Counted from the first letter of the stretch, positions 39,248 to 53,802 are shown. The stretch: 54,950 nt of DNA from Candidatus Woesearchaeota archaeon (GCA_964493885.1 CAZBPV010000001.1:1-54950); one strand, 5' to 3'. Translations and numbers: made by a program. The notes: generated by a model not told the origin, from the letters alone.

Positions 39248-39319
39248 GGTCCATTCGTTCATCGGCTAGGACAATTCGTTTACACCGAATAAAGACAGGT
39301 TCGACTCCTGTATGGACCA
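39248..39319 (+). tRNA. tRNA-Val (anticodon TAC)
   Basis: Hand-folded: acceptor GGTCCAT/ATGGACC; D arm GTTC/GGAC; anticodon stem ATTCG/CGAAT; loop TTTACAC; T arm ACAGG-TTCGACT-CCTGT; discriminator A. Confidence 0.9.
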
Positions 39320-39429: not shown

Positions 39430-39534
39430 GCGCTTGTAGTTCAGTGGTAGAATCTCTCGTTGCCATGGCAGGATTTATCATGACATTCTGCTTGCAGAAA
39501 CGAGGTGACTCGGGTTCGAATCCCGACAGGCGCA
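39430..39534 (+). tRNA. tRNA-Gly (anticodon GCC) with a 34-nt intron at the canonical 37/38 position
   Basis: Acceptor GCGCTTG/CAGGCGC; anticodon stem TCTCG/CGAGG; loop TTGCCA[intron 39466-39499]A; T arm TCGGG-TTCGAAT-CCCGA. Confidence 0.85.
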
Positions 39535-39542
39535 TTTTGAAT

Positions 39543-39613
39543 GCGCTATTAGTTTATCGGTAGAATTCGAGATTCCCAATCTCGTGGGCCGGGTTCAATT
39601 CCCGGATGGCGCA
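39543..39613 (+). tRNA. tRNA-Gly (anticodon CCC)
   Basis: Acceptor GCGCTAT/ATGGCGC; anticodon stem CGAGA/TCTCG; loop TTCCCAA; T arm CCGGG-TTCAATT-CCCGG. Confidence 0.9.
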
Positions 39614-39647
39614 TTTCTTAACTTTTATAATTTCTTAACTTTTATAA
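39614..39647 (+). repeat. Perfect tandem duplication of the 17-bp unit TTTCTTAACTTTTATAA (contains a TATA-like box)
   Basis: Units at 39614-39630 and 39631-39647, between tRNA-Gly(CCC) and the tspO-like gene. Confidence 0.85.
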
Positions 39648-39669
39648 ATACCATTTTCTTTAGTTTAAT

Positions 39670-40281: not shown

Positions 40282-41129
40282 TATATCTTCCAGTTATAGG
40301 AGCCCTAGCACTAGCATCTGGTTTTATACTAGAGAGATTAGTATTAAAAAAGAAGCAAATAGACATCAAACTCTATCAAACAGCAAGCTTCTTAGCAATA
40401 GTTCTTGTGATGCTTCCTTTGATTTATTTTTTCTGGAGACTGGATTTACAGGCACTAACTCCAGGCAATTTGTTTATTTTTGCTTTAGTTGTTTTATTTT
40501 CAATTATTGCAAACCTCTTTACTTTTTATTCAATGAAATGGGAAAAAGTTTCTAACTTAGAGCCAGCAAAGGTCCTTGAGCCATTATTTGTTATTATTCT
40601 GGCAATTATATTTAGTTTTTTTACAGTTGGTTTATATGATAGAAATCTTAGCATAATTATCCCAGCAATAATCGCTGCACTAGCCTTGGTGTTTTCACAT
40701 ATTAAAAAACATCATTTAGATTTTAACAAATACTTCCTTGCAGCAATTGCAGGAAGCTTTTTCTTTGGTTTGGAATTAGTTATTTCAAGATTAGTTCTTG
40801 ATTATTATTCGCCTATGACTTTTTATCTTTTTAGATCTCTGGCAGTATTTCTTATTAGTTTAATTATATTCAAACCCCAATTCTCAAAAATAGACAAGCA
40901 AAGTAAATGGTATATTTTAATTACAGGAGCAATCTGGGTTGTTTACAGGACAGTAGTTTATTATGGTTATTTAAATCTCGGAGTTATTTTCACAACCCTA
41001 ATTTTAATGCTAGGTCCTGTGTTTGTTTTTGCATTTGCTAGAATATTTTTAAAAGAAAAGCTTAATTGGAGAAACATTGTAGCTGCATTTGTTATTGTTG
41101 CATGCGTTGTTTATGCTGTGATAGTGTGA
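40278..41129 (+). CDS. EamA/DMT-type transporter
   Basis: About 10 TM helices in two similar halves. ATGA overlap with tspO. Confidence 0.5.
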   Translation: MIYLPVIGALALASGFILERLVLKKKQIDIKLYQTASFLAIVLVMLPLIYFFWRLDLQALTPGNLFIFALVVLFSIIANLFTFYSMKWEKVSNLEPAKVLEPLFVIILAIIFSFFTVGLYDRNLSIIIPAIIAALALVFSHIKKHHLDFNKYFLAAIAGSFFFGLELVISRLVLDYYSPMTFYLFRSLAVFLISLIIFKPQFSKIDKQSKWYILITGAIWVVYRTVVYYGYLNLGVIFTTLILMLGPVFVFAFARIFLKEKLNWRNIVAAFVIVACVVYAVIV

Positions 41130-41158
41130 TTATAATTCATCTAAACAAGGAGAGCATA

Positions 41159-41236
41159 ATGACTATGCTTGCATCTGAAGAAATATTAAAAAAAGAATGG
41201 GACAATGAATTAGACGAGAGGTGGAATAATGTATGA
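41159..41236 (+). CDS. Mini antitoxin-like ORF (25 aa) upstream of mazF
   Basis: MTMLASEEILKKEWDNELDERWNNV, preceded by AGGAGAG. It overlaps the mazF ATG. The LASE..L.K.W....DE.W pattern resembles C-terminal tails of MazE/AbrB-type antitoxins. Confidence 0.4.
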   Translation: MTMLASEEILKKEWDNELDERWNNV

Positions 41237-41555
41237 ACAAATGGAGATTGTATTAATTCCTTTTCCTTATTCTGATTTAAGTCTCTCTAAAAAAAGACCA
41301 GCACTAATTATTTCTAATGAAAAAATAAACAAAATGCAAGATAGAATTTGTTGCCTTATAACAACCAAACCACATAAAGATAATTTAAAAATAGAAAAGA
41401 GTTTTATTAAAGAAGGAAACTTGCCATTTCAGAGTTTTATCAAGCCCCACAGAATATTTACTATTAATGAGAACATAATGATAAAGAAACTTTGCAAGAT
41501 TAATAACAATCTTCATAAATTAGTTATAAAGAAGATTCACGAATACTTGGAATAA
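41229..41555 (+). CDS. mazF: MazF/PemK family toxin (mRNA interferase)
   Basis: IVLIPFPYSDLSLSKKRPALIIS...ICCLITTKP...SFIKPHRIFTIN matches the PemK pattern. Confidence 0.7.
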   Translation: MYEQMEIVLIPFPYSDLSLSKKRPALIISNEKINKMQDRICCLITTKPHKDNLKIEKSFIKEGNLPFQSFIKPHRIFTINENIMIKKLCKINNNLHKLVIKKIHEYLE

Positions 41556-41647
41556 AACGGAAATTCAATAAAATTTCCAGAGGCATTATCTAAAACAAAG
41601 CCTTTCAGGCTTTAATGCGATAAAATATCTGTCTTTTCGCATAAAGT

Positions 41648-41658
41648 CTGTTAGGCGT
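41648..41658 (+). repeat. CTGTTAGGCGT (contains GTTAGGC), inverted partner of 42219-42229
   Basis: Perfect 11-bp inverted repeat bracketing ORF 41683-42123. Confidence 0.8.
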
Positions 41659-41682
41659 AATTGTTCGGTGGCGCTAAAAGAA

Positions 41683-42123
41683 TTATATACTCTTTCTTTC
41701 TAAGTGTGTTTGCAAGATGGCTTCAAGCGCTCTATTTAGATAAGAGAACTCTTGCTCGCCAATTCTTAATCCAATATTACTTGCCTCAGCTTTTAGCCAA
41801 TATAAAAAATATTCACGAGAATCATCAAGTCTTGGACCATCTGGACATGAAAAAACGCCTGGTGCAATATAATGTAATGTTTCTTCAACAAATCCTTCAT
41901 CACTAAGTGTCTGTCCTAAAAGCTTCGGCTTTTCTCCAGTTTTCAAATAATTCGCCCATAATGTTCTAATTAAACCTCCATATTCATCCATGGGCCAAGA
42001 GTTCTCTGCTATTTTACCTTTACCCTTTTCATACACAGAAAGGTGATATTTTCCGCTTGAAGCCATAGAATGTATAGTAATATCATCACGAATTGTTGAT
42101 AATTCTTCTGACATAATATACAA
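41683..42123 (-). CDS. Hypothetical protein (cassette ORF)
   Basis: 146-aa ORF (possibly starting at MSEEL). No motif recognised. Confidence 0.45.
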   Translation of the reverse strand: MYIMSEELSTIRDDITIHSMASSGKYHLSVYEKGKGKIAENSWPMDEYGGLIRTLWANYLKTGEKPKLLGQTLSDEGFVEETLHYIAPGVFSCPDGPRLDDSREYFLYWLKAEASNIGLRIGEQEFSYLNRALEAILQTHLERKSI

Positions 42124-42150
42124 TAATTAGTTAGTTTTTATAAATCTATC

Positions 42151-42243
42151 GCGCCGCCTCGCAACTCAAAATTACTTCGTAATTTTGCCACGTCCTGCGG
42201 ACTTTCGCTTCATTCAGGACGCCTAACAGCGATTAGTTTCAAT
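42151..42243 (+). repeat. Structured intergenic repeat, member b
   Basis: Hairpin AAAATTAC-ttc-GTAATTTT (42168-42186), block CGTCCTGCGGACTTTC (42191-42206), stem GTCCTG/CAGGAC, and tail GCCTAACAGCGATTAGTTTCAAT. Confidence 0.6.
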
Positions 42244-42270
42244 TCCCAAAACAAGCTCCCCTAGATAGTA

Positions 42271-42336
42271 AGATTGTCGCGAGACGATACGATAATTTCT
42301 AACGAAAACTGGGGGCTGACACGGACGACCAACCAG
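42271..42336 (+). repeat. Left arm of nested inverted repeats flanking the HNH segment
   Basis: AGATTGTCGCGAG (42271-42283), GGGGCTGAC (42312-42320), CCAACCAG (42329-42336). Confidence 0.7.
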
Positions 42337-42370
42337 ACAAATTTTTAAGCTTCTGATTCTTGATTTAGAT

Positions 42371-42904
42371 ATGATTAAATTGTTTATCTTGGGTATTGAA
42401 TTTGAGAGTGAGAGTCATTATTACCGAGACGATGGATTTGTTAAGGATATACATAAACATGGTGCAGACATTTATCAAGAATTTGGAGATAATTCCGACA
42501 CATACTATCTTCAATTAGCATTACATGAGCGAGAAATACCTTTAGTTTCTGGCAATACTATGTGTAGAGATAATTCTTATCCCATTAAAATAATTAGCTT
42601 TTATCTACATTCTGATTCTCCCTTGAAAGAGACATTTGTCAGAGGTCATGAAGAAACCCATGCTCTAGAAAAAATGGGTAAACTAGATTTACTTCAAGAA
42701 AAACTTACCAGTCTTGGACTTAATGTAAAGATATTATCCTATTTAGATGTAGAATTAATTGCAGATATTGGGGGTTTGTACGCCGTTATTCTGCATGGAT
42801 TTGATTCTTTATTCATAACAGCCTTTTTAAATAATCATGGCGAAAATGGAAAAATAATTCTGGAGATTTATCGTAAATTTTTAGAATCTAAGGATATACA
42901 ATAA
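42371..42904 (+). CDS. Hypothetical protein with HExxH motif
   Basis: 177 aa. RGHEETHAL is the only recognisable motif. Confidence 0.4.
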   Translation: MIKLFILGIEFESESHYYRDDGFVKDIHKHGADIYQEFGDNSDTYYLQLALHEREIPLVSGNTMCRDNSYPIKIISFYLHSDSPLKETFVRGHEETHALEKMGKLDLLQEKLTSLGLNVKILSYLDVELIADIGGLYAVILHGFDSLFITAFLNNHGENGKIILEIYRKFLESKDIQ

Positions 42905-43005
42905 AGCAGTTCAAAAAATAATCCCAAAAGAACTTGTTATTTGACCTTTAACTACCTCAATTTCTTAAAAGACAAATTTTTAATCTCTTGATTCTTGGTT
43001 TTAAG

Positions 43006-43464
43006 ATGGATAAAGAAAAGCAAAGAGCAAGATACAAAAAGTATTATCAAAAGAACAGGGAAAGAATAAAACTCAAGAAAAAATTATATGGCAGAGAATA
43101 TCGTAAAAAGAATATAGATTTAATGGGCGAAAAGTGGAAAGAATATAAAAAAGAATGGCAAAAAAAGAATAAAGATAAGATAAGAATAAAGAAAAGAATA
43201 TATTCTCAAAAAATAAAAGAAAATTTTTTATTGAAATACAAATTGGGAAAATACTGTTCTTTTTGTGGTTATAATGAACACCCAGAAATATTGCAATTTC
43301 ACCATAAGAATAGGAAAGATAAATCTTTCAGAATTTCTGAATTTAGAAGAACTCCAAATTTATTATTACTAAACGAAGAAATAAACAAATGTATTTTATT
43401 ATGTCCTAATTGTCATTATTTATTTCATTTAAAGGAAAGAAAAAAGGAGATAGATAATGGATAA
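43006..43464 (+). CDS. HNH endonuclease with a Lys/Tyr-rich repeat N-terminus
   Basis: CSFCGY...LQFHHKNRKDKSF...KCILLCPNCH. The ORF track opens at a TTG at 42988; the ATG at 43006 parallels the paralog's MDKEK start. Confidence 0.7.
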   Translation: MDKEKQRARYKKYYQKNRERIKLKKKLYGREYRKKNIDLMGEKWKEYKKEWQKKNKDKIRIKKRIYSQKIKENFLLKYKLGKYCSFCGYNEHPEILQFHHKNRKDKSFRISEFRRTPNLLLLNEEINKCILLCPNCHYLFHLKERKKEIDNG

Positions 43465-43978
43465 GGAAAAAAGTAGAGCAAGAGACAAAGAATATTATCA
43501 TAAAAATTTAGAGAAAATTAGAGCAAGGAAAAGAAAACAAATGAGAGAGTTTAGAAAAAACAATAAAGAAAGAGTAAAAGAACAAAAGAAAAAGTATTAC
43601 CAAAAGAATAAGGATAAAATAAAAGAACAGAGAAAAGTGTATGTTAAAGAATACTATCAAAATAATAAAGAAAAGATTAAAGAATATGGAAAAAAAAGAT
43701 GGAAAGAATATTATCAGAAAACGAAAACAATAAAGAGAGAAAAACTTCTAAAAAAACAAGAGTTTGTATTGAGTTATAAAAAAGATAAATGTTGCGAACT
43801 CTGTGGATATAAGGAATATCCGGAGATATTACAATTTCATCATAAGAATAGGAAAGATAAATCTTTCACTATTGGGAGGAAATATGGAAAAAATCTTAAA
43901 TTAATTAAGGCAGAAATGGATAAATGTATATTATTATGTCCTAATTGTCATTCTTGGTTGCATTTTAATGAAGAGTAA
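43457..43978 (+). CDS. HNH endonuclease (tandem paralog)
   Basis: CELCGY...LQFHHKNRKDKSF...KCILLCPNCH. The N-terminus has repeated YYQKNKEKIKE-type units. Overlaps the upstream paralog by 8 nt. Confidence 0.7.
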   Translation: MDKEKSRARDKEYYHKNLEKIRARKRKQMREFRKNNKERVKEQKKKYYQKNKDKIKEQRKVYVKEYYQNNKEKIKEYGKKRWKEYYQKTKTIKREKLLKKQEFVLSYKKDKCCELCGYKEYPEILQFHHKNRKDKSFTIGRKYGKNLKLIKAEMDKCILLCPNCHSWLHFNEE

Positions 43979-44031
43979 GAAAAATAACTGAAACTAATAA
44001 CTTCGGTTAAACTAAAACTAATCGAGCCTAA

Positions 44032-44072
44032 CCAACCAGTCAGCCCCTCTAACTATATACTCGCGACAATCT
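44032..44072 (+). repeat. Right arm of nested inverted repeats flanking the HNH segment
   Basis: CCAACCAG (44032-44039, direct copy), GTCAGCCCC (44039-44047), CTCGCGACAATCT (44060-44072). GCCTAAC sits at 44026-44032. Confidence 0.7.
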
Positions 44073-44137
44073 CTAATTATAATAAACTGAAGGTTTCCCA
44101 CCTTCCACCCCCAACCACCCTCACTTGTTTTGTGAAC

Positions 44138-44296
44138 TTCTCCGCTCCTCAATCGCTCGGTAAATTTGTGGGTTGCCTCAAATTTATTTGCTCATGATGG
44201 TGCTCGACCTCTCCGCTCTGATCTTCTCATCCAATCACTTGTTCCAAGTTCAGGGAGAAAATCGGGGCTAGGGAGACTAACATAATTAGTTTCAAT
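44138..44296 (+). repeat. Structured intergenic repeat, divergent member d2
   Basis: Hairpin TAAATTTG-10 nt-CAAATTTA (44161-44186) and tail GACTAACATAATTAGTTTCAAT, which matches the tail of member b. Confidence 0.35.
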
Positions 44297-44373
44297 AGAA
44301 TTTTCACCTAATTTATTAAAGAGAGCCGAGGATCTTCGAAATATTTATAATTTATTATTCAATTCGTTTTTAT

Positions 44374-44778
44374 ATGGAAAAAACTATTTGGACACCTCGT
44401 TTGTACGGATCTTGTGATTTTGGAGTTTATTTAGATAGAGATTTCGCAAGAGATATGATTCAATCTAAAGTTTCAAACGAAAGACAAATGAGGATGAATG
44501 AATTAGCAAATGAAGAATTAAAAAGACTTGGAACCAATTGGTTAAATCCCTATACCTTTCACGAAGGTTCTTGTTTTATTTTCCAATTTTATATAGGTCA
44601 AAACGGTGTTTGGTTATCTACAAATCCTCAGACTATTGACGATTTACTTAATGGAAAAGAATCTTCTAAACCAATTGAATATGATTCTCATAATGTAGAT
44701 GTTCCAAGTCAAGCTTATGTTTTAATGCGATTATTTGATAAATGGGTTGAATATGCTGATGCTTTCAAAAGTAAATAA
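44374..44778 (+). CDS. Hypothetical protein (cassette ORF)
   Basis: 134-aa ORF bracketed by the 9-bp inverted repeat GAGAGCCGA (44321-44329) / TCGGCTCTC (44784-44792). Confidence 0.45.
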   Translation: MEKTIWTPRLYGSCDFGVYLDRDFARDMIQSKVSNERQMRMNELANEELKRLGTNWLNPYTFHEGSCFIFQFYIGQNGVWLSTNPQTIDDLLNGKESSKPIEYDSHNVDVPSQAYVLMRLFDKWVEYADAFKSK

Positions 44779-44913
44779 CGGTTTTCGGCTCTCAATTTAT
44801 TTAGAAATAATTTTTTTCCTCCGCCCGAAAGCAAAATTATTTAAATTGGTGTAACTTACAAAAATTAAGAGGTGTTAGCACCTCAAGATGCTTAATTCTT
44901 GAAAAAATCAAAA

Positions 44914-45678
44914 ATGGATAAGGAAAGTATAGATACAATAATAGTATGTGGAGGAAAGGGAACCAGAATCGAAGAATTAACTAATCAACATGGATGTAAG
45001 TCCTTAGTTCCCATTTCAGGTATTCCTATAATCTCTTATTTAACACATATTATTAGAAAAACAGTTCCCAATTCAAATTTAATACTTGCAATAGATAATC
45101 CCTCATTACAAAGAGGATTTGAGGAGGCTTATGAAAGACAAGGCATTAATAATTACCAATTTTTTCTAGGATTACCTCGAGGGCCAGTTCAAGCATTTTA
45201 TGAGGCAGGACATCTTTGTAGGTCTGATAGAGCATTAATATTTTTTGGTAATCAATTAGTTTCTCCTACCCATTTAGAAAGATTATTATCTCATAATCCA
45301 GGGTCTATGGTTTTTTCAGGATTCGATTTACTCTCTGAAAATAATTGTAAAATAGCAACAATTGATGAATCTTCTAGAGTTTTAGATGTAACAAGATATT
45401 TATATTTAGAAAAATTGAAGGAATCAGAAGTATATTTAGATGTGCCTTATGTAGTACCAAATAACTTTTTCTCAATGGAAACTTTTCCAGAAATTAAAAG
45501 ACTTTTTGTAAAAACTCCTATGGATAAAGTTGTTTTAAGTGGAGAGGAAGATGTTCTTGTTGAAATGTCCGATTTTCCCCCAGAATTTCATTTTAAAGAA
45601 GATCTTGCATCTTTAGATAGAATTGCTAAGAGATATTTCTCAGATTTAATTGCTAGATGGGGTGAAAAACATGGCTGA
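44914..45678 (+). CDS. Sugar-phosphate nucleotidyltransferase-like protein
   Basis: IIVCGGKGTRIEELT...KSLVPISGIPIISY resembles the NTP-transferase G-x-G-x-R loop. The ORF track opens at a TTG at 44899. Confidence 0.55.
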   Translation: MDKESIDTIIVCGGKGTRIEELTNQHGCKSLVPISGIPIISYLTHIIRKTVPNSNLILAIDNPSLQRGFEEAYERQGINNYQFFLGLPRGPVQAFYEAGHLCRSDRALIFFGNQLVSPTHLERLLSHNPGSMVFSGFDLLSENNCKIATIDESSRVLDVTRYLYLEKLKESEVYLDVPYVVPNNFFSMETFPEIKRLFVKTPMDKVVLSGEEDVLVEMSDFPPEFHFKEDLASLDRIAKRYFSDLIARWGEKHG

Positions 45679-46216
45679 TCCTTATTGTTTAATTATTTCA
45701 GGTCCCTCTGGGAGTGGAAAAACAACCACTGCAAAAATGCTCTGGAAAAGTTTAGATGGAAATCCTGCCTACTTAAGTTTAGACTCAATTAAACATCTTG
45801 TTAGTAGTGCAGAATCTACTGATTATTTTTTAGATTTAGCTAGATTAAATGCCTTATCATTAACAGAAAATTTTCTCTGTAGAAATCATCCCATAATAAT
45901 AGAAAAAGCCTTCGGAAATTATAAGTATGTTAGAGATTTTATCGAATTAGCTGATAATTTACAAGTAAAAAGTCATTATTTTAAACTAAATGCACCATTA
46001 GAAATTTTAATAGAAAGAGCAGATAGAAGAAGAAACGCTTCTTTAAGAGAAAAAGTTGAATCTGGGGAATGGCCTCTTCCGATAGGTAATAGAGAAACTG
46101 TGACTAGTATTTATAATTTTTTTATGAAATATCAGCATAATGAGGGAATTGAAATAGATACTTCAAATAAGACTCCTGAAGAGGTTACACAATTAATTAG
46201 GTCATACCTAATCTAA
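45671..46216 (+). CDS. P-loop kinase (AAA_33/zeta-toxin-like fold)
   Basis: Walker A GPSGSGKTT. The ATG at 45671 overlaps the upstream stop (ATGGCTGA). Confidence 0.55.
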   Translation: MADPYCLIISGPSGSGKTTTAKMLWKSLDGNPAYLSLDSIKHLVSSAESTDYFLDLARLNALSLTENFLCRNHPIIIEKAFGNYKYVRDFIELADNLQVKSHYFKLNAPLEILIERADRRRNASLREKVESGEWPLPIGNRETVTSIYNFFMKYQHNEGIEIDTSNKTPEEVTQLIRSYLI

Positions 46217-46816
46217 TTCTAAATGTTGAAGAGAATTTACTAATTCAAAAGAGTATTTTTTTGATTGATCAATGTTAATAACTGAAAGAGATGTATTCCC
46301 TTTTGTGGAATATTCTTTTGTATTTTCAATTTTATCCTTATGTAAGTATGTAAGAATGCAGGATATAGGGCCTCCATGACTTACTATTAATACTTGATCC
46401 GTATCATCATGTTCTTTTATTAGATTTTCAAAAAATGTTATTGCTCTTTGCCAGCATTCCCTAAGACTTTCTCCTTTCTCAGGTTTAAAATCTTCATAAG
46501 GTATTTGTGATTCTTTAACTACTTTTTTAAATTTAGAACTATGTTGCCCTTCAAAAACTCCCTTTGCCTGTTCTCTTATTTTATTATTTTGAACTAAAAC
46601 AACTTTTTGATGATGCTTAAGTATCTCTTCTGCAGTTTTTACACATCTATCTAAATCACTAGAATATGCATGAGTTATTTCTATATTCTTAAGTTTCTTT
46701 GAAATCTCTTTTGCTTGTTCTATTCCTAAATGAGTTAATTGGGAATTAAAGTGACCTTGAGAAATCTTATTAAGATTCTCATTAGTTTGACCATGTCTAA
46801 CGATATAAATTCTCAT
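46208..46816 (-). CDS. Histidine phosphatase family protein (second paralog)
   Basis: IVRHGQTNEN and VSHGGPI motifs. Convergent with the kinase gene, overlapping it by 9 nt. Confidence 0.65.
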   Translation of the reverse strand: MRIYIVRHGQTNENLNKISQGHFNSQLTHLGIEQAKEISKKLKNIEITHAYSSDLDRCVKTAEEILKHHQKVVLVQNNKIREQAKGVFEGQHSSKFKKVVKESQIPYEDFKPEKGESLRECWQRAITFFENLIKEHDDTDQVLIVSHGGPISCILTYLHKDKIENTKEYSTKGNTSLSVINIDQSKKYSFELVNSLQHLELD

Positions 46817-46914
46817 AATAACCAATACAAATCTTTATTTAAAAATCTTATCTCTCTCTACTTTTATTTTTATTTTAGTAAACTCATAATTAATTCCACC
46901 CCTAAGATTATTTT

Positions 46915-46956
46915 ATCTTCTTTCTTAGAAAGAAAGAAGCAAAGAAGGGCGCACAC
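46915..46956 (+). repeat. About 45-bp repeat with a palindromic core, copy 1
   Basis: ATCTTCTTTCTTAGAAAGAAAGAAGCAAAGAAGGGCGCACAC, homologous to 48545-48589. Confidence 0.7.
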
Positions 46957-47055
46957 CTCAAATTTAATGGGATGGCCAGAAGCCCACCTAAACTAAGAGA
47001 GATTTTAGAAATATTAAAGACGGAGAATTGGAAACTTGCTCCGTTTCACTCCGCA

Positions 47056-47116
47056 CCTCGCCTTGCAGGCTCTCACAAAATCAAAGATTTTGTTCGGGAG
47101 AGTTGAACAGGGCTTA
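47056..47116 (+). repeat. Structured intergenic repeat, member e
   Basis: CCTCGCCTTGCAGGCTCTCA-CAAAATCaaaGATTTTG-...TGAACAGGGCTTA. About 50 of 61 positions are identical to member g. Confidence 0.75.
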
Positions 47117-47132
47117 TGTCTAATTGTTTGAA

Positions 47133-47284
47133 GGCACTAAACTTTGAAATTAAAAGATAATTAAAGATGGCACTTCAATACCCCCGACCACCTGCCCCAT
47201 TTACGAGGTGCGTGCTTGGTTTTTCGCATCACGAAAAACAGGTAGTATTTTTCTTCGAAAAAGAAACTTATCTGGGCACTTTGC
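47133..47284 (+). repeat. Three GGCACT(T) sites upstream of the MFS gene
   Basis: GAAGGCACT (47130-47138), GGCACTT (47169-47175), GGCACTTTGC (47275-47284). Mirrored by three AAGTGCC sites downstream of the gene. Confidence 0.65.
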
Positions 47285-47331
47285 ATAACTTAATAAAGAA
47301 GAAAATTATTTTAAAATAAAAGAGGAATCAA

Positions 47332-48531
47332 ATGAAAATCTTTCAAAAAAACGAACTTAAACTACTAGGAATTTTTTATTTGGAAGCTTTAATTTCTTCT
47401 ATATTTGTTTTTTTCCCTGCATTTATGATAATTTATTTTGTAAACATTGGTTTAAGTTTTTTTCAAATTTCTTTAATTACTACAATTTTACTTCTTTTTA
47501 GATTTGTTTTTGAAATTCCAACAGGGGCAATAGCAGATGTTTTTGGAAGAAAGTTTTCTGTTTTACTTGGTTTACTAATTGCAGGAATTACCTTTTTCTT
47601 TTTATTATTTTTTGATAGTTTTTATAGCCTTATGATTATCTTTGCTATACTTGGTTTTGCGGGAACATTTGAGTCTGGAGCAAGAGAATCTTGGGCTGTT
47701 GACTTAATAAAAAAAGAAAAGAAAAATAATTTACAACAGCATTATTTTGTAAAACTTGATAGTATTGCTAGTTTTGGACTTGTTCTCTCTGGAATTATTG
47801 GAGCATTAGTTGTTAAAAATTTTGGTCTTTCTTCAATTTGGTTTTTTGCGGGAATTGCTTGCCTTATTTCTTTTTTCTTACTCGGATTTGCAAAAGAACA
47901 TTTTGTTAAAAGAAAAGTTAAGATTAAAGATTCTTTTAAAGATTTAACAAAACAATCTAAAGTTTCAATAAACTATGCAAGACGTCATAAGGTTTTATTT
48001 TTGTTTTTAATAGCTACTGCATTTATTGTTTTTGCTAATGAATTTAACGGAGCTCTTGCTTGGGTTCCTTTTTTACAAAATCTTGGATTTCCAGAACATG
48101 CATTTGGTTATTTATGGTCTGCAATGGGGGTAATGGGAATTTTTGCTCCTTTCGTTTCTTTAAAATTCCTCAAAAAAGGAAAAGAAAGGAAATTTATTTT
48201 GACTACAATAATCTTGACAATTTTAGTTTTAACACTTGTAATCTTTGTTAAAAGTATTTTGTTTGCATTTTTGATTATTTTATCCCAATTATTTTTTGGA
48301 GGAATGAGTCGCCCTGTAGAAAGAAGTTATTTTCATAAATTCGTAAAAAGTAAATTGAGGGCAACTGTTGGAAGCGTTGAAAGTATGTTAATTGGTTTAG
48401 TCGCTTTAATTGCAATGCCTCTTGCTGGTTTAAGTGTTGATTATTTTGGAGCAAGATATACCATTTTATTATCAGCCCTTTTAATGATTCCTTCAGCAAT
48501 AATTTTCTTCAAAATCAAAAACGGAAAATAG
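47332..48531 (+). CDS. MFS transporter (paralog of 29797-30999)
   Basis: EIPTGAIADVFGRKFSVLLG. Colinear similarity to the other MFS along its whole length. Confidence 0.7.
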   Translation: MKIFQKNELKLLGIFYLEALISSIFVFFPAFMIIYFVNIGLSFFQISLITTILLLFRFVFEIPTGAIADVFGRKFSVLLGLLIAGITFFFLLFFDSFYSLMIIFAILGFAGTFESGARESWAVDLIKKEKKNNLQQHYFVKLDSIASFGLVLSGIIGALVVKNFGLSSIWFFAGIACLISFFLLGFAKEHFVKRKVKIKDSFKDLTKQSKVSINYARRHKVLFLFLIATAFIVFANEFNGALAWVPFLQNLGFPEHAFGYLWSAMGVMGIFAPFVSLKFLKKGKERKFILTTIILTILVLTLVIFVKSILFAFLIILSQLFFGGMSRPVERSYFHKFVKSKLRATVGSVESMLIGLVALIAMPLAGLSVDYFGARYTILLSALLMIPSAIIFFKIKNGK

Positions 48532-48654
48532 CAAAGTGCCTGCCATCTCTTCTTTCTTGAAAAGAAAGAAGCAAAAAGGAAAGCACACATCCCCATACAA
48601 TAAGACAGCATCCCTCCGTCCTAAAGTGCCCTATTTAAGATTAATACAAGTGCC
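48531..48654 (+). repeat. Three AAGTGCC sites downstream of the MFS gene
   Basis: GCAAAGTGCC (48531-48540, begins in the stop codon), AAGTGCC (48624-48630), AAGTGCCTTC (48648-48657). Confidence 0.65.
48545..48589 (+). repeat. About 45-bp repeat with a palindromic core, copy 2
   Basis: ATCTCTTCTTTCTTGAAAAGAAAGAAGCAAAAAGGAAAGCACACA, homologous to 46915-46956. Confidence 0.7.
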
Positions 48655-48663
48655 TTCTCACAG

Positions 48664-48745
48664 CTCTGCGGATTTTCTACGAAAATCCTCGGGGTCGTCT
48701 TGCAGACTTTCGCTTCGCTCACCCTCACTTAACACAGATTCAACG
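48664..48745 (+). repeat. Structured intergenic repeat, member f
   Basis: Hairpin GGATTTTC-tac-GAAAATCC (48670-48688), block CGTCTTGCAGACTTTC (48696-48711), tail ACTTAACACAGATTCAACG. Confidence 0.65.
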
Positions 48746-49003
48746 CAATGCTGGCTCGGGCTCTTCAACAAGTCGTTTTAACTTATTATTATCAGGATCG
48801 AAATCAAATTCATAATGATTTCCACAAGAAGGACAAACTGTTCCAATACCTATGTTGCGAATGGCATCATCTTCACAGCCAAATTTTCTCATTGTTTCTA
48901 AATATAGTTTAGGAGTATTCCCATTATCTGGAAAATTTTCCGCTTTGTCATACAATCCACAGCCGTCGCAACTTATATTTTCGACCCTTATATATTGTGC
49001 CAT
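48740..49003 (-). CDS. Small Cys-rich zinc-ribbon protein
   Basis: MAQYIRVENISCDGCG...CPSCGNHYEF. The ORF track extends to 49108, but that extension runs through repeat member h. Confidence 0.45.
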   Translation of the reverse strand: MAQYIRVENISCDGCGLYDKAENFPDNGNTPKLYLETMRKFGCEDDAIRNIGIGTVCPSCGNHYEFDFDPDNNKLKRLVEEPEPALR

Positions 49004-49054
49004 ATTTATAGTATTCTTGTTGAGGTTAATAAATTTATCGCCCTCGCCAGCACA

Positions 49055-49139
49055 CTCTGCGGTTTCCTTCGAAAATTCTTGCCACGCTGCGCTCTCAAAT
49101 CCCTCCAAGTTTTCGGACGAAACTAACAGGAATTCAACG
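49055..49139 (+). repeat. Structured intergenic repeat, degenerate member h
   Basis: CTCTGCGG-TTTCCttcGAAAATTC-TTGCCACGCTGCG...AACTAACAGGAATTCAACG. Followed by the hairpin TTTTTTGC-tac-GCAAAAAA (49143-49161). Confidence 0.5.
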
Positions 49140-49213
49140 AAATTTTTTGCTACGCAAAAAACTCTGCACGAGATTAATTTTAGTTATAGAGTTCCCACCC
49201 AAAACAGCACGGG

Positions 49214-49894
49214 TTACTTATTTAACCATTTAACAAAACTTTGAAATTTGCTTTTTGGATTTTCTCCAAAATATTTAAGAAACATTTTATTATAATTTGC
49301 TTTGTTAGGTCTCTTAATAAAATCATTCATGAAGGAAATAATTACTTTTGAATTGTTGTCGGATACAAATTCTATGAAATATCTCCATATAGAATAATTT
49401 AATCTTACAGTTTTCTTATTTGGGTAATTTCTATATAAATATCTATATTGCAATATTTTATGATTTATCTTTTTTGTTTTTATTTCCTTTAAGGTTTCTT
49501 TTTTTGGTAAGGGGTATCCCCCAATAAAATTTGCTAGCCCTTCATGAATCCATGTCGGTTTTGTAATCCCATAAAAGAGAGCAAAAAATACATGGTTCAT
49601 CTCATGGTCAAGAAGAATTTTATAATCTTTGTCGCTTCTTTTAAGAAATTTTTGTTCCTTTGCAACAAAAGTACCATCTCTTAAAACAGTCCCTGTGCCA
49701 AATGGAAAATAATAATATTTGGATTCTTCTTTCCATTCTTTTTCTGCATTGCATATAACTATCTTAAATTTTTTGCTCGGAGTTCTGCCAAAGATTGTTT
49801 TATTTTTCTCATAAGCTTCGAAAATCCAATTTTCAATTTTGCTTGGAATTTCTTTGCTTGATTTTAATATGGCAAATTTCAAATCTTTTTCCAT
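49214..49894 (-). CDS. Peptidase MA-like putative zinc metallopeptidase
   Basis: LLDHEMNHVFF (HExxH) plus a downstream WIHEGLANF. Confidence 0.55.
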   Translation of the reverse strand: MEKDLKFAILKSSKEIPSKIENWIFEAYEKNKTIFGRTPSKKFKIVICNAEKEWKEESKYYYFPFGTGTVLRDGTFVAKEQKFLKRSDKDYKILLDHEMNHVFFALFYGITKPTWIHEGLANFIGGYPLPKKETLKEIKTKKINHKILQYRYLYRNYPNKKTVRLNYSIWRYFIEFVSDNNSKVIISFMNDFIKRPNKANYNKMFLKYFGENPKSKFQSFVKWLNK

Positions 49895-49981
49895 ATAATG
49901 AGAATATAAATGGTTATTTAATAACTTTACTAAACTCGTGCTATCCCGCCCTTAAAATTAGTCTAAAATTAATCTCGCTTG

Positions 49982-50041
49982 CCTCGCCTTGCAGGCTTTC
50001 AGAAAATCAAAGATTTTCTTCAGGTCGCTGAACAGGGCTTA
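49982..50041 (+). repeat. Structured intergenic repeat, member g
   Basis: CCTCGCCTTGCAGGCTTTCA-GAAAATCaaaGATTTTC-...TGAACAGGGCTTA. Confidence 0.75.
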
Positions 50042-50056
50042 AATTCAATTTTTCAT

Positions 50057-50082
50057 GGAATAATCTCTGGTCCAAAATACTT
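50057..50082 (-). repeat. Duplicate of the last 26 nt of the radical-SAM coding sequence
   Basis: GGAATAATCTCTGGTCCAAAATACTT is identical to 50123-50148. It lies in frame and is followed by its own stop codon (50053-50055). Confidence 0.85.
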
Positions 50083-50118
50083 TTCTAAGCAATTTTTAAA
50101 TTGATTCAGTGAAGTATT

Positions 50119-51231
50119 TTAAGGAATAATCTCTGGTCCAAAATACTTCTCATACTCAAAGTCTTTTTCATTTACAATACCTTTTTTAATTAAGTCTTTT
50201 ATTTCAGGCATTTTATCTCTGATGCTTCTAATTAAATGAATAACAGTCTCGCAAATCATATCCTGCCCTTTTTCAGGCCAGAGTTTTGCCTTGTTAAAAT
50301 ACAAGCATCTTCCCCCGCAAATTCTCTTGTAAGTGCATTTCTTGCATCTTCCATCAACATTAAACTTCTTCAAATCCTCAATTTTTGAATCAAGGTTTCC
50401 TGTATAAAAATCAGTGATATTATTCATGATAGGGCAGGCAGTAATATCTCCTTTTGTAGTTATAGTATAACCTGCATGTCCTGCACCACATCTTAATCTT
50501 GAAGTTTTTCCATAATAATATGTTTCAAATATTCCAAGCAAGGGATATAATTTCAAGACCCCTTTATTTTTCTTCATTTCATCCACCCAAAAATTAATAA
50601 GTTTGCTCAGTGATTTATTATACTCATCAACAAACTGCCTGAATTCTCTTTCATTAAAATCATTTTTATAGAATCCAGCATCAATCTGCCAGTGGACAGA
50701 ATCAAATTCTTTTAGGTCTATAAGGTGCTTAACTTGTTCAAATAAATCTGAAAAAGAAATTGTCATTCTCGCAATAATCTCTCCTTTAAACCCATTTTCT
50801 CTAATAAATTGAATATTGTCTAGTATTAATTCATAAGTTCCAACTCCTCTGTTATAATCTGTTCTCTCAACATCCCCGTCAATTGAAACCAAAATTCTTG
50901 AAAATCTATTAATATATTCTTTAGGCACAGTATCAAGAAGTCTTCCATTAGTCTGCATACAGTATCTTACAGAATCACCAAACAAATCCATTATCTCTTT
51001 TAGATTATCAATCTTCAATAATGGCTCCCCTCCATAAAAAATAATTACTGGATTCTTGTCTTGCAAAATAAATTCCTTTAATTTCTGCATGTCAATTCCA
51101 ATATCACACGGAGAACTAAAATCAAACTTAAATTTTTTATCTAAATCATTGTCAAAATCATTCATAGATTTTTCATAACAATATTTGCATTGTGAATTGC
51201 ACTTTTCTGTTAAAATAATGTGCCAGTACAT
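50119..51231 (-). CDS. Radical SAM enzyme with a SPASM/twitch-like C-terminal Cys cluster
   Basis: CNSQCKYC (CxxxCxxC) at the N-terminus, and C-terminal CGAGH...CP...CKKC...CGGRC. Confidence 0.75.
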   Translation of the reverse strand: MYWHIILTEKCNSQCKYCYEKSMNDFDNDLDKKFKFDFSSPCDIGIDMQKLKEFILQDKNPVIIFYGGEPLLKIDNLKEIMDLFGDSVRYCMQTNGRLLDTVPKEYINRFSRILVSIDGDVERTDYNRGVGTYELILDNIQFIRENGFKGEIIARMTISFSDLFEQVKHLIDLKEFDSVHWQIDAGFYKNDFNEREFRQFVDEYNKSLSKLINFWVDEMKKNKGVLKLYPLLGIFETYYYGKTSRLRCGAGHAGYTITTKGDITACPIMNNITDFYTGNLDSKIEDLKKFNVDGRCKKCTYKRICGGRCLYFNKAKLWPEKGQDMICETVIHLIRSIRDKMPEIKDLIKKGIVNEKDFEYEKYFGPEIIP

Positions 51232-51339: not shown

Positions 51340-52098
51340 ATGAATTTTTTAAAATATCTCACATTATTAACATTATTAATTGGTGGAGGCTGCGATGTTA
51401 TCCAGAAAGGAAGAGTAAATGAATATAGAATTAATAGAACTCAAGAGGAGCTTTCTGATGCAAAGAATGACACTTCAAGAATTTTTACTTATTTTGAAAA
51501 AAGGAGCGATAAGATAGAGGAAAGAAATAGAGATGAACAAGAAAGAACTTTTCAATATAGAGAAAGCACAGAAAGAAGATTCCAAAATCTTTCTAATTTT
51601 TTAAAAGAATTAGATTCTGCAATGGTTTTTGGTTTTAAATACATGGATTTTCAGATAGAAACTTTACAAAAAAATCAACTAGATGAAGGTAGAAGAATAA
51701 AAAATTTAGGTTCAAGTCTCCTTGATTTAGATGAAAAAGATTCTCTCTTAGAAAAGAATATATCTGAGTTATCAAAAGATTATATAGTCCTTTCAATAGA
51801 TTACCAAAACTTAATAAGATTAACAGATTCATTAATTGAAGAGCAGAGTAAATTAAAAGGAACTTTAATTCAAGAAGAAAAAAGCAGGAAAGAAATTGAA
51901 TTAAAATATAAGGAATTATTAAATTCTTTTTTAAATTATCAAGAAGATATTGAGGATAGAATTCAAGAAATAGAAAATAAGGTTGCAATTCAAGAAGAAG
52001 AAGATATTGATAAAAAAATTCAAGAAATAGAAGACAGGATTGAAATTCAAGAAGAAGGGTTCAATAAAGAAATGCCTCTTAAAATAGGATTCTTTTAA
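51340..52098 (+). CDS. Secreted/lipoprotein-like coiled-coil protein
   Basis: Signal-like LTLLTLLIGGGC, then heptad-rich sequence with C-terminal IQEIE..IQEE repeats. Confidence 0.45.
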   Translation: MNFLKYLTLLTLLIGGGCDVIQKGRVNEYRINRTQEELSDAKNDTSRIFTYFEKRSDKIEERNRDEQERTFQYRESTERRFQNLSNFLKELDSAMVFGFKYMDFQIETLQKNQLDEGRRIKNLGSSLLDLDEKDSLLEKNISELSKDYIVLSIDYQNLIRLTDSLIEEQSKLKGTLIQEEKSRKEIELKYKELLNSFLNYQEDIEDRIQEIENKVAIQEEEDIDKKIQEIEDRIEIQEEGFNKEMPLKIGFF

Positions 52099-53702
52099 AA
52101 ATCAGTATTTCCTGGATTTCCTTGGAAATTCATGCCTTTCTTTTTTCCTGATGCAGCTATAACATCATCAATTCTTAAAATCATTATTGCAACTTCAGAT
52201 GCAGAATTAATTGCCTGGCTTTTTATCTTGTATGGCTCAATTATCCTAGCTTCAAGGGCATTCTCAATCTTATTTGTCAGCAAATTTAATCCAGCATTTT
52301 TCTCCCCTGAATCATGCCTAGCTTTTAATTCAGTAAGAATATCAATTGGATCCATTCCTGCATTTTCTGCAAGCGTAGCAGGAATAAATTCTAGTGCACA
52401 GGCAAATTCTTCAACAGCAAGCTGCTCTCTTCCATTTAATCCTTGTGAAAATTCTCTTAGTCTTTTTGCAAGTTCAATTTCAACAGCTCCTCCCCCAACA
52501 ACAACCATGCCTGTTTTAAGAGCAGATATAATATCACCTAACCCATCTCTAATTGCTCTCTCAATTTCATCAATTACATGACTGCTTCCTCCATGAATAA
52601 GTATTGTCAGTGCCCTAGGATTTTTGCACCCTTTTATATAAGTCATAACATCATCGCCATGCCTGATTTCTTCTACTACTTTCGCATCCCCTAATTCAAA
52701 TGCATCAAGCTCATTTAGATTGCTTACAATCTTCCCATTCGTTGCTTTGGCAATCTTTTCCATATCACCTTTTCCAACTCTCCTGCAGACATATATGCCA
52801 TCCTTAGCAAATAAATACTGGGCAAAATCATCAACCCCTTTCTGGCAAAAAACTACATTTGCTCCGCTTGCTTTTACTTTCTCAACCATTCTATTTATTG
52901 TCTTTTCCTCATCTTCAAGAAAATTTTGCAATTGTTCTGGAGAAGATATTGAAATCCTTGTGTTTATCTCAGGATTCTTTACTTCAATTGGAAAATCAAT
53001 TAATGCAATCTTTGCATCTTCAACTTTTGGAGGCATCTCATTTGAAACTTTTTCCTTGTCTATTATTATCCCTGAAATAAGTTCAGTGTCTTCTACACCA
53101 TCTCCTTTTATTTTTTCAATTTTTATGTCATTAATGTCTATTTTATTATTTCTTTCAACTTGTTTAACAGCATTTACAAGTATGCTCGAGAGTTTTTCTT
53201 TTGCCCCCTCTGCACTTTTCCCAGTCATAGCAGTCATTGCAATCTGTCTTAAAACAGATTCATCATTAGGAGTTATTCTAAGTGAGATTTCCTTAAGTAT
53301 TTCTTGTGCTTTTTCAGCAGCTAATCTGTATCCTTTAGTAATAACTGTAGGATGAATTTTTTTATCAAGAAGTCTTTCAGCATTTTCAAGAAGTTTTCCA
53401 GCAATCATAACTGCTGTTGTTGTTCCATCCCCAACTTCTGATTCTTGAGTCTTTGCAATCTCCACCATCATTTTTGCTGCAGGATGCTCTATTTGCATTT
53501 CATTAAGAATAGTCACGCCATCATTTGTAATTATAATATCATCAGTAGGAGAAACCAGCATTTTGTCCATTCCTTTTGGCCCAAGTGTTGTTTTAATCAT
53601 GTCAGCAACCATCTTAGCAGCCATAATATTATTTCTTTGTGCGTCTTTTCCAATCATTCTTTGTATATCTTCAGGCATTAGAACTAAAGGTTTATCAGAC
53701 AT
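52095..53702 (-). CDS. ths: Thermosome subunit (group II chaperonin)
   Basis: [27 protein letters not shown]. The likely start is MSDKPLV at 53702; the ORF track opens at 53723. Confidence 0.9.
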
Positions 53703-53802
53703 ATAGAAAAAATCCCAAAACACTTATTTAAACATTATTATAATGAAATGTAACCTTCAATTTTTAAAAAATATTTATAAGCATTAACTATCTAAATTGT
53801 CT

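Follow-up and report, generated by a model that had tools for sequence, protein, structure and literature searches.

The window analysed here, a stretch of 54,950 nucleotides of a Candidatus Woesearchaeota archaeon (GCA_964493885.1, CAZBPV010000001.1:1-54950) with a GC content of about 30%, contains between 41.6 and 50.05 kb an array of seven sites that resemble the cores of recombination sites, together with six cassettes of accessory genes (C1 to C6, 41651-50038). We read this region, with moderate confidence, as an integron-like array of six cassettes run by a Xer-type recombination system. The seven cores are packed into 8.5 kb of the 55-kb window, and pattern and profile scans found no copy in the other 46 kb. 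Six of them are on the plus strand regardless of gene orientation, each 3' of a GC-rich module of 65-180 nt, and the cassettes hold one to four genes each, in either orientation. By the polarity of its spacer the seventh, site a, is the sole inverted core. An unaided inspection of the DNA (the sequence-only reading) had proposed a cassette array whose borders are co-oriented recombination sites, with an RYYYAAC-like box marking the crossover, and this proposal is supported; the placing of the repeat family on the plus strand only is borne out by the six co-oriented modules and cores.

The cores share one layout, in which a left arm of 8-11 nt ending in TAA or GAA is followed by a spacer of 5-6 nt starting with CA and by a right arm of the form TTA-N5-AAT. 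The six on the plus strand are core b (42216-42243; AGGACGCCTAA / CAGCGA / TTAGTTTCAAT), core d2 (44271-44296; GGGAGACTAA / CATAA / TTAGTTTCAAT), core e (47097-47124; GGAGAGTTGAA / CAGGGC / TTATGTCTAAT), core f (48722-48749; CCCTCACTTAA / CACAGA / TTCAACGCAAT), core h (49116-49143; GACGAAACTAA / CAGGAA / TTCAACGAAAT) and core g (50022-50049; AGGTCGCTGAA / CAGGGC / TTAAATTCAAT), which is the last core and forms the right end of the array. The spacer CAGGGC is common to cores e and g, and core d2, with its 5-nt spacer, is the most diverged member. Arms also match between sites: the left arm of core h is exactly complementary to TTAGTTTC, the right arm in both core b and core d2, and the right arm of core e to AGACATAA, a left arm common in other genomes. 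Arms of the window that have no local partner find exact matches elsewhere (TTATGTCT with AGACATAA and TTCAACGC with GCGTTGAA in other genomes).

The modules, likewise on the plus strand, lie directly 5' of their cores, at 42151-42215 (b), about 44097-44270 (d2), 46916-47096 (e), 48548-48721 (f), 49039-49115 (h) and 49944-50021 (g). They open with a CCCACCC- or GCGCC-type motif, preceded in e and f by an A/T hairpin (repeat D18), which in module e is TCTTCTTTCTT-aga-AAGAAAGAAG at 46916. Within them are a hairpin with an A/T stem, such as AAAATTAC-ttc-GTAATTTT in module b, and a 16-mer (42191-42206 in b, 47059-47074 in e) that is itself a small hairpin of the form GTCT-TGC-AGAC, GTCC-TGC-GGAC or GCCT-TGC-AGGC. 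The order of 16-mer and hairpin is permuted among the members, with b, f and h on the one side and e and g on the other. Module f contains a 20-mer, CGTCTTGCAGACTTTCGCTT, that is conserved across DPANN genomes. A DNA profile built on the module alignment found members b, f and g with nhmmer E-values of 2e-14, 1e-23 and 0.018, respectively. The weakest member is d2, which has the tail and a CCCACC start and lacks the 16-mer.

The repeats themselves are well above expectation. The 16-mer CGYCYTGCRGRCTYTC occurs in four exact copies at 42191, 47059, 48696 and 49985, all on the plus strand, and with up to three mismatches it has 11 matches where 1.5 are expected, a number reached in none of 100 shuffles; the 16-nt block that the sequence-only reading had reported in four members is thus correct in both coordinates and sequence. 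The tail pattern AACANNNNTTNNNNNNAAT (AACA-N4-TT-N6-AAT) has 9 matches where 3.8 would be expected (equalled or exceeded in 2 of 100 shuffles), and five of these are the plus-strand tails of b, e, f, h and g, within 8 kb. The tail described as common to the members is found in these five, and in d2 its spacer is one base shorter than in the others. The A/T-stem hairpins are present, GCCTAAC at 42221 and 44026, GTTAGGC at 41650 and GTTAAAC at 44006 were confirmed, and the claim of GC-rich spacers agrees with the clustering there of 60-nt windows of at least 50% GC (42143-42340, 44084-44274, 47011-47248, 48644-48778 and 49030-49141). The inverted repeats said to bracket several cassettes all exist. 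When they were tested against 2000 shuffles in the non-coding flanks (the inclusion of coding sequence was uninformative owing to AT-rich matches), only the 13-nt pair at 42271/44060 (0/2000) and the 10-nt pair at 47275/48531 (5/2000) were individually significant; the 9-nt pair at 44321/44785, one base off the coordinate first given, and the 7-nt GCACGAG pair were not (203/2000 and 549/2000). The 11-nt pair at 41648/42219 corresponds to the complementary core arms of one cassette.

That cassette, C1 (41651-42232, 582 bp, plus strand), opens with TTAGGCGTAAT and closes with AGGACGCCTAA CAGCGA (42216-42232), and the right arm with which it opens complements the left arm with which it closes at 8/8 positions (TTAGGCGT/ACGCCTAA). 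The other five cassettes are delimited on the plus strand in the same way. The agreement is 7/8 in C2 (42233-44285, 2053 bp), which ends with module d2 and GGGAGACTAA CATAA, and 7/8 in C6 (49133-50038, 906 bp, module g); it is only 4/8 in C3 (44286-47113, 2828 bp, module e), which is probably composite, 5/8 in C4 (47114-48738, 1625 bp, module f) and 3/8 in C5 (48739-49132, 394 bp, module h). By our own calculation, at least 4 of the 5 variable arm positions match by chance with a probability of about 0.016 per cassette. On a metagenome contig, L134, two consecutive cassettes, including one with an acetyltransferase gene, obey the arm rule at 8/8 (both scorable neighbours). The expectation that a cassette opens with the half pairing its own RYYYAAC therefore holds for three of the six cassettes of the window and for two in L134, and fails for C3-C5. 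Reconstructed circular junctions are 8-6-8 palindromes in C1 (8/8 pairs) and in C2 and C6 (7/8), and the arms of the other three cassettes do not match in this way.

The sequence-only reading had suggested that breakpoints be sought in related genomes, and for C1 they lie where predicted. A homologue of the C1 protein, P0016 (84% identical), is found on metagenome contigs such as L134, and window positions 41651-42235 match L134 596-1178, taken in reverse complement, along 586 nt with 90.3% identity. The alignment does not extend past 41651-42235 at either end, the flanks being unrelated on both sides. The homology starts at the first T of TTAGGCGTAAT and stops just after AACAGCGA/TTA, 3 nt past the crossover and inside the TTA common to both downstream arms. 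To the left of C1 lies site a in the window versus another module and core (GCACGACTTAA CAGGGC) in L134, and to the right lies cassette C2 in the window versus TTATAAGATGG..., which leads into aldolase and IF-2B genes, in L134. The module hairpins of C1 differ between the two by compensatory changes. As read from this alignment, C1 is a discrete mobile unit in which gene and module travel together, with breakpoints at the predicted crossovers. Homologues of the C5 (87-residue) and C6 (226-residue) gene products are in ordinary neighbourhoods that lack modules, and gave no second breakpoint case.

The family extends well beyond this genome. Searches of species-representative genomes with the 20-mer of modules b and f (CGTCYTGCRGACTTTCGCTT) returned 36 stretches with one match each, many at contig ends, of which about 32 are from DPANN archaea (Woese-, Pace-, Nano- and Aenigmatarchaeota). 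The module in these relatives precedes one of three things: the same short core (in L006, L014, L018, L026 and L038), a palindrome of 22-28 nt (e.g. ACATAAC-AGCGA-TCGC-GAT-GTTAGTT), or an element of 80-180 nt with the structure R''-A-L''...L'-GAT-R'. These long sites carry both attC boxes, e.g. ACTTAAC...GTTAATT. A stricter scan gave twelve long sites, of which nine pair all of the first 10 nt of L'' with L' (10/10) and three pair all but one (9/10), with at least eight different stem sequences among the twelve, and five of six long sites tested fold as single-stranded DNA with z-scores of -6 to -8.5 and a constant 2-nt bulge (the sixth has z = -2.2). Given these folds and the constant bulge, the long sites look like attC; their stem repeats, in folded form, the layout of arm, CA-spacer and TTA-arm. 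Arrays of co-oriented sites are present in relatives as well, with four sites each in L003, L012 and L091, each following a module of the same style and variable sequence, and in some other loci modules adjoin housekeeping genes. The stems covary between genomes (AAAATTAC/GTAATTTT versus AAAATCC/GGATTTT, and GTCC-TGC-GGAC versus GCCC-TGC-GGGC). Two contigs of assembly GCA_035256385.1 (DATEYC010000103.1 and DATEYC010000159.1) match parts of the window at 100% identity and break on either side of module f (window 48551-48914), which fits with modules acting as assembly-breaking repeats.

The modules and long sites of the window and of loci L003-L091 repeatedly contain small hairpins in which the stem varies and the loop, C-TTC-G or TGC, is constant, among them TTTGC-TTC-GCAAA, TTGAC-TTC-GTCAA and GAAAATCCT-TGC-AGGATTTTC, and a motif CCCAAATTT occupies the centre of long sites. 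The recurring hairpins with constant loops and this motif could constitute a recognition code for a protein.

In other genomes the family is linked to a recombinase of the XerA type. A tyrosine recombinase gene was found by phmmer within 4 kb of the module in five of the approximately 32 archaeal 20-mer loci, upstream and divergent in four of the five. Pfam counts of 96 large open reading frames (ORFs) near the 20-mer matches, in which only families with at least two members were listed, had contained no integrase. The five array-adjacent recombinases (about 260 residues) have NF040815 XerA_Arch as their best model, and two pass it (247 bits, cutoff 220). None reaches the cutoff of the integron-integrase model TIGR02249 (214 versus 265 bits), which matches in two stretches and, where the second is reported, leaves model positions of about 181-236 unmatched; this split, sub-cutoff match indicates that the array-linked recombinases do not have the IntI-specific insertion. 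In a reverse test the array-linked XerA-like proteins were used to fetch 80 metagenome loci (L053-L132), which were scanned with strict module and site patterns. Outside xerA there are 34 motif matches: 26 lie upstream and divergent from the gene, 3 lie upstream in its own orientation and 5 are downstream; 5 further matches inside xerA are coding coincidences. Matches to the module profile around xerA are upstream and divergent in all cases (6/6). Of the 80 xerA contigs, 25 have their first base no more than 300 nt 5' of xerA, and 10 have their last base no more than 300 nt 3' of it, a pattern suggesting that in many DPANN populations the stretch directly 5' of the gene is repeated or variable.

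In 23 of 65 loci an xAACA box and, after it, an inverted repeat with arms of 9 bp or longer are found 90-137 nt 5' of xerA; by our own tally these loci include most of those whose XerA is closest to the query. Several of these proximal sites are clean 11-6-11 repeats, e.g. GATTATCATAA ATTTAA TTATGATAATC, which is the published format of archaeal dif (PMC2958812, PMC8371274). The order away from xerA is the palindrome, ...TG/TTA-N5-AAT, 30-50 nt and the first module. Locus L091 exemplifies the arrangement, with xerA followed by four co-oriented long sites between ParE/MazE, HigB-like and small unknown genes and a gene for a kinase-like protein of 540 residues.

Site a of the window (41615-41661) resembles these xerA-proximal sites. 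It consists of an 11-6-11 inverted repeat, ATGCGATAAAA (41615-41625), TATCTG and TCTTTTCGCAT (41632-41642), overlapped by a core at 41634-41661 (TTTTCGCATAA / AGTCTG / TTAGGCGTAAT) with the predicted crossover between 41650 and 41651. On the minus strand the core reads ATTACGCCTAA CAGACT TTATGCGAAAA, after which the last arm is repeated in inverted form. In L109, L110, L114, L116, L121 and L124 the sequence that aligns with site a lies about 100-150 nt 5' of XerA-like genes, with TAACA..TTAxGCG invariant, and judged by this resemblance site a looks like the head of the array, a primary (attI- or dif-like) site. In the window it is mazEF that adjoins site a, where relatives have xerA, and mazF ends 60 nt from it. 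A sequence like site a, CTCGCATAA ATTTCTG TTAGTTTTCCT, is present downstream of the C5 gene homologue in L141 (about 1255-1295); it has no module and may be a bare core or a coincidence.

From these observations we infer how the array may work, the acting enzyme, the chemistry of strand exchange and the role of the module being the parts of the scheme that go beyond the sites. An archaeal XerA-family tyrosine recombinase, encoded outside the window, would carry out strand exchange where the spacer meets TTA, either inserting circles at co-oriented cores or excising circles between such cores. The ends of a circularised cassette would form a dif-like core of two inverted 8-nt arms and a 6-nt spacer, which for C1 would be ACGCCTAA-CAGCGA-TTAGGCGT, and the array would start at site a, built like the dif-like primary site just upstream of xerA in relatives. 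The module probably serves as accessory DNA, as a binding platform or a single-stranded fold, comparable to the direct repeats of attI or the accessory sequences of cer and psi; its strong sequence conservation across phyla suggests a protein-binding region. The spacers differ, which points to exchange of one strand only, with replication completing the process as it does in integrons and CTXphi. More tentatively, these arrays may together represent a DPANN platform for cassette capture that is run by a XerA-family enzyme and anchored at a dif-like site beside xerA, with cassettes bounded by dif-like cores or attC-like hairpins and accompanied by the accessory module.

Several points weigh against a Xer-run array. 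All of the support is computational. The window contains no recombinase, in agreement with what had been stated of it (no tyrosine recombinase was found among the ORFs of the 55 kb), and it is mazEF, not xerA, that is beside site a. The strict patterns match at only about a third of the XerA loci. The differences between the core spacers would block classical two-strand Xer exchange, the left arms are asymmetric in their outer 3 nt and lack the outer ATT of a fully palindromic XerA site, and half of the cassettes (C3, C4 and C5) break the rule of complementary arms. For C5 and C6, whose homologues sit module-free elsewhere, gene capture and module insertion would fit equally. Finally, the recombinase may be a trans-acting IntI encoded elsewhere in the genome.

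This last point leads to the strongest of the alternatives, which we nevertheless consider unlikely, namely that the region is a canonical integron array of the CALIN kind (a cluster of attC sites without an integrase), served by an IntI encoded elsewhere, in which the short sites of the window are degenerate or attI-like derivatives of attC. Archaeal integrons, mostly CALINs, have been reported in Nanoarchaeota and Aenigmatarchaeota, their attC sites have the RYYYAAC...GTTRRRY frame, and IntI1 recombines archaeal attC sites (PMC9668308). The RYYYAAC boxes at the crossover, the R''-L''...L'-R' structure of the relatives' long sites with its constant 2-nt bulge and strong folds, and the toxin-antitoxin cassettes in L091 are all as this explanation would have it. 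Against it, the recombinases of the approximately 32 archaeal loci all match the XerA model best, none of the five array-adjacent ones attaining the integron-integrase cutoff and two exceeding that of XerA, and IntI is absent from the window and is not listed for the DPANN genomes consulted in Data S1 of PMC9668308. The mixed gene orientation and the presence of several genes in some cassettes also argue against it. The window sites themselves do not behave as attC. A dedicated scan of the window for RYYYAAC...GTTRRRY pairs with an L''/L' stem gave only AT-rich noise; in the cores the RYYYAAC-like box is followed after 4-5 nt by TTA-N5-AAT, with no G before TT and no second box, and single-stranded folds of the cores with 80 nt downstream have z-scores of +1.7 to -1.4. 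The sites thus lack the GTTRRRY partner (with its R' G), L' and a significant fold. The sequence-only reading had held that the lack of any attC-like fold would refute it, and single-stranded folding scored none in the window. It had offered 'attC-like or a new type' of site: the first half fails and the second is closer, given the dif-like cores, the attC-like hairpins in relatives and the XerA-type enzyme. Nor does its structured GC-rich repeat correspond to a recombined hairpin, the repeat being instead an accessory module 5' of the core.

A second alternative, which we regard as distinctly improbable, is that the modules are self-spreading elements similar to repetitive extragenic palindromes (REP) or miniature inverted-repeat transposable elements (MITE), scattered between resident, immobile genes, and that the complementary arms are the terminal repeats of these small elements. 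Such elements could account for the gene-less long sites of 80-180 nt, for the modules beside housekeeping genes in other loci and for the module-free homologues of the C5 and C6 genes, where homology stops at the ends of the genes. They would explain C5 and C6 and not C1, whose gene and module move as one unit of 585 bp with breakpoints at cores. Nor would they be expected to give sites that are strictly co-oriented and clustered, seven in 8.5 kb with none in the other 46 kb, or arrays confined to one side of xerA and to one strand.

It is very unlikely that the modules are small structured RNA genes or 3' untranslated-region or terminator elements unrelated to recombination, a role that could coexist with one in recombination and that would fit GC-rich islands in a 30% GC genome, covarying stems and recurrent C-TTC-G loops, since the RNA folds of the modules are weak (z of -2.75 to +0.2), the 16-mer and hairpin are permuted, no credible Rfam 15 match was found in 41000-50400 at E-values up to 10 (only tRNAs reach the gathering threshold), and the palindromic cores, the core-exact breakpoints and the linkage to xerA would be left unexplained. 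A single consensus RNA fold for the module was tried and rejected, the stems flanking the 16-mer being inconsistent between variants. H/ACA or C/D box small RNAs, considered on account of the ACA in the tail, have no Rfam support, and the conserved tail runs well past an ACA box. Strand bias and hairpins in subterminal position had made ends of the IS200/IS605 type worth considering; tyrosine recombination agrees better with palindromic cores and linkage to xerA, and no Y1 transposase is among the 25 most frequent Pfam families of the 96 large ORFs in related loci, in which no dedicated search was made. Partial tRNA copies, or attachment sites of elements that target tRNA genes, were likewise rejected, the likeness to the tRNA cluster at 39.2-39.6 kb being no better than a 10-nt TTCAATTCCC match.

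An array run by a Xer-type system would have features of several known systems. With integrons and CALINs (PMC9668308) it has in common the accessory-gene cassettes between co-oriented sites, the crossover beside an RYYYAAC/GTTRRRY-type box, the opening of a cassette with a half-box complementary to its own end, the bulged hairpins of 80-180 nt in relatives, the occurrence of toxin-antitoxin cassettes and a recombinase gene beside the primary site and divergent from the array. It differs from them in that the window sites are arm-spacer-arm cores of 27-28 bp with no hairpin, that a module of 65-180 nt precedes every core, that the linked enzyme is of the XerA type (about 260 residues, without the IntI-specific insertion), that the primary site is a dif-like palindrome and that gene orientation is mixed, with several genes in some cassettes. 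Integrative mobile elements exploiting Xer (IMEX), such as CTXphi, VGJphi and TLCphi (see also PMC5357621), also have dif-mimicking cores with inner TAA/TTA and a 6-nt spacer, double-stranded cores (VGJ-like) coexisting with folded forked hairpins of two inverted half-sites (CTX-like), tandem integration with co-oriented hybrid sites and no recombinase of their own. Unlike these phages, the units here are gene cassettes of 0.4-2.8 kb, many per array, with a conserved accessory module, in an archaeal host with a single XerA and with the dif-like site adjoining xerA.

The pdif (Re27) modules of Acinetobacter are small accessory modules, including toxin-antitoxin systems, that move between replicons and have Xer-type 11-6-11 sites at their borders. 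The pdif sites are on plasmids and alternate in inverted orientation (C/D then D/C). Here, by contrast, co-orientation holds for six of the seven cores, which are chromosomal and have an upstream module. In the XerS/difSL system (see also PMC5357621) a dif-like palindrome also lies about 60-140 nt upstream of the recombinase gene, but that system is described only for the resolution of chromosome dimers and not as the head of a cassette array. The accessory sequences of cer and psi likewise comprise about 100-200 bp of conserved DNA on one side of the core, at every site and in fixed orientation, but have no sequence similarity to the modules of the window. Chromosomal dif is present in a single copy per chromosome, in the terminus, whereas here there are seven cores in 8.5 kb.

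The cassettes and their surroundings contain genes of varied kinds. For those labelled MazF, HNH, NTP-transferase, P-loop kinase, histidine phosphatase, major facilitator superfamily (MFS) and radical SAM, Pfam agrees with the sequence-only reading; the labels 'metallopeptidase' and 'Zn-ribbon' have no Pfam support. C1 carries a single gene on the minus strand (41683-42123) for a protein of 143-146 residues with no Pfam match and of unknown function. C2 encodes a 177-residue protein of unknown function (42371-42904) and two HNH paralogues (42988-43464 and 43457-43978; the HNH match is weak, E = 0.005), and contains the 13-nt inverted repeat (42271-42283 / 44060-44072). C3 encodes a 134-residue protein of unknown function (44374-44778), an NTP-transferase (44899-45678), a P-loop kinase (45650-46216) and, on the minus strand, a histidine phosphatase (46208-46825); from its sequence, 44793-44898 is possibly a decayed site. 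C4 carries an MFS transporter gene (47332-48531) and the 10-nt inverted repeat (47275-47284 / 48531-48540). The genes of C5 (48740-49003) and C6 (49214-49894) are both on the minus strand; the former encodes a Cys-rich protein of 87 residues and has its stop codon within the right arm of core f, and the product of the latter (226 residues) has no Pfam match.

Further repeats were observed within C2 and at the right edge of the array. A 45-nt leader, AGACAAATTTTTAA...TGATTCTTG, is present at 42335-42379 and 42970-43014 (80% identity), 5' of the gene for the 177-residue protein and of the first HNH gene, and the HNH paralogues (42988-43978) have repeated Lys-rich N-terminal segments (repeats D1-D3, D10 and D17). 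At 43986-44032 there are two tandem complements of the C2 opening arm, AACTGAAACTAA and AACTAAAACTAA, split by the mini-palindrome TAAC-TTCG-GTTA and followed by the second GCCTAAC; by their sequence these arm copies resemble what is left of decayed or nested cores. A 26-nt direct repeat without mismatches is found at 50057-50082 and 50123-50148. The second copy is the 3' end of the radical SAM gene (KYFGPEIIP and stop); the first, which starts 8 nt past core g, would specify an identical C-terminus ending in another stop codon. The repeat may be a scar left at the array's right edge by an insertion or recombination event.

Elsewhere in the window is a thermosome gene (52095-53723). Rfam detected a tRNA of 105 nt (53 bits, 39430-39534) that was not called by ARAGORN, between tRNA-Val (39248-39319) and tRNA-Gly (39542-39614), and that is probably an intron-containing archaeal tRNA. 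Together with the phyla from which the related sequences come, these features mark the host as a DPANN-type archaeon. Right after tRNA-Gly and 5' of the TspO gene, at about 39614-39650, is a tandem duplication of a unit of about 17 nt, ATTTCTTAACTTTTATA, which includes a TTCTTAAC box and a TATA-like element. An 80-nt direct repeat of 89% identity (14284-14363 / 14779-14858), in or beside the ORF 13906-14895, is unrelated to the array.

Integron integrases are thought to derive from Xer-like recombinases, and we know of no described intermediate between the Xer and integron systems. The literature searched contained no paper that connects attC-like sites with archaeal XerA; cassette arrays are already known from these archaea, and the short dif-like cores, the obligatory module and the linkage to xerA and dif were not met there. 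The family described here unites a XerA-type enzyme, a dif-like primary site, dif-like double-stranded cores and attC-like hairpins, which would make the question of a Xer origin of integrons experimentally testable. Should a trans-acting IntI be responsible, the window would be another archaeal CALIN with unusually short sites. If instead the Xer-type reading is correct, the array would represent a counterpart of the integron built on Xer, or a system related to the integron's ancestor, and some DPANN 'CALINs' would not be IntI-dependent, so that attC-like clusters in small-genome archaea would be read differently. The frequent assembly breaks just upstream of xerA would be explained, and these arrays would point to a way in which DPANN archaea, with genomes that are otherwise reduced, gain genes.

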